Shown: positions 32,377 through 32,821, counted from the first letter of the stretch. The stretch: 64,000 nt of DNA from Escherichia coli (GCF_048403405.1 NZ_CP183129.1); one strand, 5' to 3'. Notes: a model not told the origin generated them from the sequence alone. A program made the numbers and translations.

Positions 32377-32733
32377 AGTCGCTGCCATTTATTCAGATAA
32401 AGAGTGCGTGGATGGTAGCAGAATTTCGCTTTGCTTACCGCCTGTTGTTAAGTGATTTGATCGATGGTTGTTAATGATGTCAACGATGGCGCAAAAAATG
32501 CCCGCTTTTGGTGCGCGCTGCGTCAGAATGGCGCAGTAATTTCCAGTAAATTTCGTCAATGATCACAATTCCAGAATTATATTTTACTTCTGCATAACAT
32601 TGCGTTTTTTATTCTTTTTATTCACCCATATCGCAAACGTATTCACTTTATATGCACTTTAAATGCATATGGTTTGGTTATAACTCCTTGATTTCCAGTT
32701 AGCCACCGCGGTTTATGCACTTTTATCACTGGC

Positions 32734-32749
32734 TGGCACGAACCCTGCA
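32734..32749 (+). promoter_or_regulatory. sigma54 (-24/-12) promoter of the ast operon
   Basis: TGGCACG-N4-CTGCA at 32734-32749, about 75 bp upstream of astC, close match to TGGCACG-N4-TTGCW. Confidence 0.7.
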
Positions 32750-32821
32750 ATCTACATTTACAGCGCAAACATTACTTATTATTAACATATAAATAACGAA
32801 TTATTTACTGTAGAGGTCGCT

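Follow-up and report, generated by a model that had tools for sequence, protein, structure and literature searches.

The astCADBE control region of an Escherichia coli chromosome: a sigma-54 promoter with NtrC-like sites and conserved ARG-like boxes

Related systems and the ast locus

The E. coli promoter glnHp2 is built on the same logic as the promoter described here, with an NtrC enhancer at a distance, a weak -12 element and a DNA-bending protein bound between the two, and one source groups it with astCp among weak promoters that IHF or ArgR binds naturally. As its accessory protein is IHF and not ArgR, glnHp2 has no small-molecule (arginine) input, and its enhancer is much closer to the promoter than at astCp. 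In Bacillus subtilis, arginine catabolism through rocABC and rocDEF relies on SigL (sigma-54), on the enhancer-binding protein RocR and on the ArgR-family protein AhrC as co-activator, the latter acting at a non-canonical site that is less than a double box. The roc genes differ from ast in using RocR and not NtrC, in where the ARG box lies and in the catabolic pathway, and there is no sequence relationship between them. The operators of argF, argI, carAB P2 and argECBH carry the same 18-bp ARG box motif as ast, and a position weight matrix (PWM) derived from them detects the ast boxes. These biosynthetic operators consist of two good boxes (8-22 bits each), 2-3 bp apart, which overlap and repress a sigma-70 promoter, whereas ast has one moderate box and half-boxes, at a distance of 100-170 bp upstream, and is activated.

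The ast operon itself has been described in E. coli K-12 and in Salmonella. The K-12 astCp promoter is the same locus, with the same ChIP-seq motif and with single-base differences at the strain level only. The ast region of Salmonella Typhimurium has an orthologous promoter, TGGCACGAATGCTGCAAT, and differs in the spacer and in the sequences between the conserved blocks; all conserved blocks were shared by the S. arizonae locus (L042). In Salmonella Typhimurium, ArgR is said, from work by Lu and Abdelal in 1999, to bind between upstream NtrC/CRP sites and two promoters. CRP is reported to be required under carbon starvation in Salmonella, whereas the E. coli ast promoter is down-regulated by CRP-cAMP according to a secondary citation.

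The present region was analysed within a window of 64 kb (the whole stretch of DNA, 64,000 nucleotides). The 601 bases around it were matched in 5424 of 5426 complete E. coli genomes, with flanks annotated as xthA and astC, which places the region in the 445-bp xthA–astC intergenic region. The open reading frames 3' of it were identified as astC, astA, astD and astB (NCBIfam), and the divergent one as exodeoxyribonuclease III (xthA). The intergenic region differed from that of K-12 MG1655 at 4 of 445 positions (32430, 32629, 32705 and 32710), all of them outside the -24/-12 element, the NtrC-like sites and the conserved ARG half-sites. Positions 32490-32821 are the control region of the arginine succinyltransferase operon astCADBE, which is already known and well studied. 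In that sense the region is ordinary and its first-pass annotation as the ast control region was right, as gene order (xthA/astCADB) and published sigma-54, NtrC and ArgR control support. The A/T-rich context described there was also confirmed, with an A+T content of 64.9% against 50.5% across the window. The extent originally given (32600-32821) takes in the promoter and the best ARG box but begins downstream of the NtrC-like sites, of a CRP-like block and of a distal ARG-like box, and a probable overlapping sigma-S promoter had gone unmentioned. The region corresponds to a textbook case of a sigma-54 promoter under nitrogen control that is assisted by an accessory DNA-binding protein; it adds little as a discovery, and its promoter type was recognisable from the sequence alone. 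The features are collected in Table 1.

Table 1. Features of the xthA–astC region, in window coordinates
Feature	Position	Strand	Sequence	Remarks
xthA	31570-32376	minus		RefSeq annotation of identical strain
NtrC-like dyad site 1	32499-32515		TGCCCGCTTTTGGTGCG	centre ~-253; 3 mismatches to TGCACC-N5-GGTGCA
NtrC-like dyad site 2	32519-32535		TGCGTCAGAATGGCGCA	centre ~-233, 20 bp from site 1; 3 mismatches
Most conserved upstream block	32548-32586		AAATTTCG-N5-GATCACAATTCCAGAATTATATTT	conservation mostly at least 0.9 per column in 76 non-Escherichia-like rows
CRP-like 16-mer	32552-32567		TTCGTCAATGATCACA	right half perfect; 3 mismatches, all in left half
Weak ARG-like box	32571-32588			4.4-5.5 bits across full and strict ARG PWM
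Distal ARG-like box	32589-32606		TCTGCATAACATTGCGTT	TGAATAA in most genera; centre ~-162.5; 7.1 bits; strict PWM 5.4
Best ARG box	32641-32658		ATTCACTTTATATGCACT	centre ~-110.5; full PWM: rank 2 in 64 kb (12.1 bits); strict PWM: rank 9 (10.3 bits)
Canonical partner position of best box	32662-32679			3-bp spacer; conserved in left half only, TGCAT here and TGAAT in most genera
TAAC-N3-TTGAT(A/T) block	32682-32693			conservation at least 0.9 at named bases; in no sigma-70-type promoter match
Block just upstream of -24 element	32712-32724		TTTATGCAnTTTT	conservation at least 0.9; resembles ARG box right half
Sigma-54 -24/-12 element	32734-32749	+	TGGCACGAACCCTGCA	GG 32735-36, GC 32747-48; PWM, orthologues, K-12 ChIP-seq, Salmonella ChIP-chip
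Probable sigma-S/sigma-70 -10 element	32751-32758	+	TCTACATT	C at -13, TACATT hexamer; conservation; overlaps sigma-54 promoter
Predicted sigma-54 start and leader	32760-32821	+		A at 32760; 62-nt A/U-rich leader; Shine-Dalgarno GAGG 32813-32816
astC, first gene of astCADBE	32822-34042	+		NCBIfam PRK12381, 847 bits; RefSeq annotation

Two genes were longer in a mechanical list of open reading frames than in RefSeq, namely xthA (272 aa, start at 32388 against 32376) and astD (511 aa, start at 35013 against 35070); the RefSeq astD start and the astA stop overlap by 4 nt. A strongly conserved block near the xthA start (32389-32425, ...ATAAAGAGTGCGTGGATGGTAGCAGAA) is presumably the promoter and leader of the divergent xthA gene, outside the ast control region.

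The upstream 520 bp were aligned for 80 orthologous Enterobacteriaceae astC loci, from Escherichia, Citrobacter, Salmonella, Enterobacter, Klebsiella, Raoultella, Kosakonia, Kluyvera, Cedecea, Buttiauxella, Pluralibacter and other genera. Conservation was concentrated in blocks at 32499-32535, 32548-32597, 32640-32669, 32682-32693, 32712-32724 and 32728-32771 and in parts of the leader, and the sequence between the blocks varied freely.

The explanation held here with high confidence is that astCADBE is controlled from this region by a sigma-54 promoter activated through NtrC looping and assisted by ArgR, with a probable overlapping sigma-S promoter. Sigma-54 RNA polymerase would occupy the -24/-12 element as a closed complex. 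Under nitrogen limitation, phosphorylated NtrC bound at its upstream pair of sites would contact the polymerase by DNA looping over ~240 bp and lead to the open complex. ArgR-arginine, placed between enhancer and promoter at 32641-32679 and probably also at 32589-32627, would act as an accessory architectural co-activator, in the role taken by IHF at other weak sigma-54 promoters, and arginine superinduction is proposed to result from this assistance. A -12 element held below consensus (C or G before TGC) would fit a weak promoter in need of help, and the overlapping sigma-S-type -10 element, TCTACATT, would serve expression in stationary phase. Dependence on sigma-54, NtrC, ArgR and RpoS is taken from the literature; the putative occupancy of the boxes by ArgR, the looping geometry and the assignment of the -10 element to sigma-S are what we infer from the sequence. 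The mechanism matches the one reported by Kiupakis and Reitzer in 2002.

The sigma-54 promoter and the start region

A near-consensus -24/-12 element, TGGCACG-N4-CTGCA, had been put forward in the first-pass annotation, together with the advice that it be checked by weight-matrix scans for sigma-54, NtrC and ArgR. The element was found at exactly the position given, as the single match to TGGCAC-N6-TGCW in the 64-kb window (TGGCACG-AACC-CTGCA), where 0.46 matches were expected by chance. A sigma-54 PWM was trained on 28 ChIP-confirmed intergenic sites of Salmonella, with astC left out. With this matrix, TGGCACGAACCCTGCAAT scored 18.6 bits, the highest value in the window on both strands and within the range of the training sites (16.2-23.8 bits), while the next best score (14.3 bits) was below that of the weakest training site. 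A scan with the sigma-70 consensus found no promoter-like site in the ast control region; two matches, at chance level, are located at the edges of the xthA and astC genes.

This prediction is concordant with published binding data. The motif under the K-12 sigma-54 ChIP-seq peak OS17 is CTGGCACGAACCCTGCA (Bonocora et al. 2015), and its centre (1830087) maps to window position 32741, where the sequence is identical. The astC sigma-54 promoter has EcoCyc status 'C', experimentally confirmed, as quoted with that study (Bonocora et al. 2015). The Salmonella orthologue was positive in sigma-54 ChIP-chip and NtrC-dependent (Samuels et al. 2013), and a genomic SELEX (gSELEX) peak of the RpoN holoenzyme was reported in the astC/xthA spacer (Shimada et al. 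2021).

The element was present as TGGCA(C/T)-N5-(C/G)TGCA in all 80 orthologous loci, 87-92 bp 5' of the astC ATG. TGGCA and TGCA were invariant, and the spacer was free to vary, with 13 different 5-nt variants among the 80 loci, which represent more than 20 genera. The astC promoter has one departure from the sigma-54 consensus, a C instead of a T before the TGC of the -12 element. At this base (window position 32745 and the aligned positions), C was found in 50 sequences, G in 31 and T in none of the 81, against T in 19 of the 28 training sites. The persistence of a base other than T suggests, by inference from the alignment, that selection may have kept the astC promoter weak. According to a secondary source, astCp is a weak promoter to which ArgR binds naturally, much as IHF does at glnHp2. 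The base before TGC has clearly changed several times among the orthologues, yet never to T.

The predicted sigma-54 start lies 19 bp past the motif centre and 62 nt before astC (Bonocora et al. 2015), which corresponds to position 32760. No stable fold was predicted for the leader RNA over positions 32760-32850 (z = 0.66). A pairing of the small RNA GcvB with the conserved leader segments GCAAACA/TTAACAT was considered and rejected, as 25% of shuffled leaders paired as well or better in what was a crude test.

The 16 nt that follow TGCA were almost invariant across the 81 sequences (ATCTACATTTACAGCG and close variants), a degree of conservation that exceeds what a sigma-54 promoter alone requires. 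RpoS-dependent transcription of ast has been reported in the literature, and one RpoS ChIP-seq study, in the conditions it used, detected no binding upstream of astC. From its sequence and position, TCTACATT is probably the -10 element of this RpoS-dependent promoter, overlapping the sigma-54 promoter; the start site and the sigma-S assignment are both predictions of the present analysis.

This conservation bears on a different reading of the region, in which sigma-54 binds but a sigma-S (or sigma-70) promoter is the dominant one and is served by the ARG-like and CRP-like blocks. Hardly any variation is seen from position -11 to position +12, a stretch that includes a good sigma-S-type -10 element, ast is RpoS-dependent in stationary phase according to the literature, and many sigma-54 binding sites are described there as transcriptionally silent under the conditions tested. 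The conserved half-box TTTATGCAnTTTT is moreover located ~45 bp 5' of the start region, a position typical for activators of sigma-70-family promoters. Against this reading, a transcriptome-based analysis assigned dominant control of the ast operon to NtrC, astCp has been used to drive an NtrC-dependent reporter in synthetic enhancer constructs, and the sigma-54 promoter is listed in EcoCyc as experimentally confirmed. A dominant sigma-S promoter is considered highly improbable, and as both promoters could operate side by side, this reading adds to the NtrC/sigma-54 explanation more than it displaces it.

NtrC-like, CRP-like and ARG-like sites upstream

NtrC sites were sought by a consensus search, which found two adjacent sites with three mismatches each at 32499-32535, upstream of the extent first annotated. 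A single site of this quality is at chance level, with 27 such matches per 64 kb. An NtrC enhancer is recognised by at least two dyads located at least 100 bp upstream, and what was found here is an adjacent, positionally conserved predicted pair of this kind. At the aligned position of site 1, three or fewer mismatches were present in 54 of 80 sequences and one or two in 19 of 80; for site 2, 26 of 80 sequences had at most three mismatches and 60 of 80 at most four. The sites were nearer to the consensus in other genera, site 1 for example reading TGCACCATTCCGGCGCA in Raoultella.

The operon is among the targets found by NtrC ChIP-seq, with direct binding credited to Kiupakis & Reitzer (Brown et al. 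2014), and an NtrC gSELEX peak was located in the astC/xthA spacer (Shimada et al. 2021). The ChIP-seq interval (1830021-1830101, assuming U00096.2 coordinates) maps to window positions 32727-32807, that is, to the sigma-54 promoter and leader and not to the predicted NtrC sites ~230 bp upstream. The offset may come from binning, from limited resolution or from cross-links formed through the loop. The nitrogen (NtrC/sigma54) and arginine (ArgR) control to which the region had been related at first is supported by published ChIP and gSELEX data and by the secondary literature.

The CRP-like 16-mer falls within the most conserved upstream block. Its asymmetric resemblance to TGTGA-N6-TCACA was kept in 70 of 81 sequences, and in 76 of 81 the distance from GATCACA to the downstream TGGCAC was 173-174 bp. 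An Rfam scan of positions 32200-33000 gave no family above threshold. A match to the mgtC leader (Salmonella) family at 32491-32602 on the minus strand (21.4 bits against a gathering threshold of 48; E = 0.12) was rejected as almost certainly due to chance in A/T-rich DNA.

Repeated ATTCAC, ATGCAT and ATGCAC half-sites resembling ARG boxes had been described at 32620-32670. They are present there (ATTCAC at 32620 and 32641, ATGCAC at 32652, ATGCAT at 32663), and the five half-site pentamers of ATTCA/ATGCA type exceed the 0.99 +/- 0.96 found in dinucleotide-preserving shuffles, none of 2000 of which reached five. Among them is the ARG box with the highest score and the best conservation in the region (32641-32658), but neither the first ATTCAC (32620) nor the T-rich sequence at 32606-32637 was conserved among the orthologues. 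This T-tract was rejected as a conserved bending element for that reason. ATTCA, ATGCA and ATGCA are arranged as direct repeats ~11 bp apart and not as inverted halves.

A symmetric 18-bp ARG PWM was obtained by an iterative double-box search in 11 ArgR-controlled upstream regions of K-12, and a strict version was built from eight classical operators. The boxes recovered in training are presumably the classical operators of argF, argI, carAB, argR and argECBH. Their scores were 8-22 bits (median 17.5), and C was present at position 5 in 7.5 of 22 boxes. As TGCAT/ATGCA is a common variant of TGAAT/ATTCA in genuine K-12 boxes, the ATGCA half-sites are legitimate.

In the scan with these matrices, the best box of the region reached a modest 10-12 bits. 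It corresponds to the 18-bp imperfect palindrome wnTGAATwwwwATTCAnw and is within the training range but below its median; with the strict matrix it did not exceed the highest chance matches of the 64-kb window. Frames overlapping it were found at 32630-32647 and 32651/2-32669, and lower scores were obtained at 32652-32669 (8.3 bits), 32651-32668 (5.5 bits) and 32600-32617 (5.3 bits). No TGAAT-N4-ATTCA core with two or fewer mismatches was found in 32600-32720. No good canonical double box (2-3 bp spacer) was found either, the best totals being ~9 bits against ~23-39 bits in the training operators. The caution in the first-pass annotation that the individual sites were only approximate matches was accurate, and given the modest scores, the missing core and the missing canonical pair, the assignment to ArgR is only suggestive from the E. 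coli sequence taken alone.

The orthologues were more informative about this cluster. A box at offset -93 from TGGCAC scored at least 6 bits in 97% of the 80 sequences (median 12.1 bits). Boxes at -145, -104 and -83 did so in 61%, 53% and 41% of the orthologues, where the background rate was 0.3%. Most genera have a consensus TGAAT as the third half-site, located 7 bp past ATGCA, which is the geometry of the junction between adjacent ARG boxes. At the partner position itself the score was -3.1 bits in E. coli (orthologue median -2.0), with (A/G)TGAATA kept and the right half variable. As the TGAAT junction is kept and the second right half is free, what is conserved as an ArgR target resembles one full box and half of a second. 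An alternative frame (-104/-83) was present in Klebsiella and Raoultella, with a 16-bit box and a total of ~24 bits. ArgR database sites, as we assume, lie near -162/-142 and -110/-90, in agreement with the predicted boxes.

Secondary sources describe ArgR as an activator of the sigma-54-dependent ast operon that is accessory and not essential; in one ArgR ChIP-exo paper, ast is absent from the main text. The weakness of the boxes (10-12 bits, where the training boxes have a median of 17.5), the lack of a canonical double box and the direct repeats ~11 bp apart might instead indicate that the ATTCA/ATGCA repeats are A/T-rich DNA bound by CpxR, Nac, Lrp or IHF, or an intrinsic curvature between enhancer and promoter, and not ArgR sites; one paper also mentions a RegulonDB CpxR site for the ast operon. 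This is quite improbable, as TGCAT/ATGCA is frequent in bona fide ARG boxes of K-12, the TGAAT found in most genera keeps exactly the 7-bp spacing of adjacent boxes, and Klebsiella and Raoultella carry 16-bit boxes within the cluster. Binding and activation by ArgR at ast are also reported in the literature, and the lack of conservation of the T-tract speaks against the curvature proposed. ArgR binding to these repeats is kept as the preferred reading.

The sequence TATGCACTTT(A/T) occurs twice, at 32651-32661 and 32714-32724, with the copies 63 bp apart (~six helical turns). Both copies are kept as TATGCAnTTT across the genera, and the one proximal to the promoter is poor as a full ARG box.

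Spacing across genera and ARG-type matches elsewhere

The spacing of the NtrC sites, the CRP-like block and the ARG box relative to the -24 element was fixed within 1 bp in more than 20 enterobacterial genera. As judged from the alignment, this fixed spacing and the sub-consensus -12 element would be in keeping with a stereospecific architecture and with selection for a weak promoter. These comparative results (the fixed spacing, a -12 element that never reaches the full consensus, and an ArgR target that resembles one and a half boxes) are what is added to the known picture, and they could guide mutational work on how ArgR helps the looping between enhancer and promoter.

The same conservation might be taken further, to a rigid, stereospecific assembly of several proteins that includes blocks beyond those of NtrC, ArgR and sigma-54. 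The blocks concerned are TAAC-N3-TTGAT at 32682-32693, TTTATGCAnTTTT at 32712-32724 and CCAGAATTATATTT, part of 32548-32586, in at least one of which an undescribed factor, or an unconventional contact of ArgR with a half-box, would be involved. Read as a full ARG box (offset -20), the TTTATGCAnTTTT block scored -2.3 bits, and at least 6 bits in 4% of the orthologues. Such an assembly is considered rather doubtful. If it were true, the sub-consensus -12 element would make the promoter dependent on the assembly.

The top ARG PWM match of the 64-kb window was at 54422-54439, in the hxpB/yniC–ydjM intergenic region (54401-54550). As it overlaps the two apparent LexA (SOS) boxes of ydjM (CTGTATAAAAATCC...CTGTACGTATCGACAG, minus strand), it is probably a cross-match between A/T-rich palindromes. 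The same intergenic region harbours a perfect ARG-type core, TGAATGCAAATTCA, at 54497-54510, just past the terminator hairpin of hxpB.
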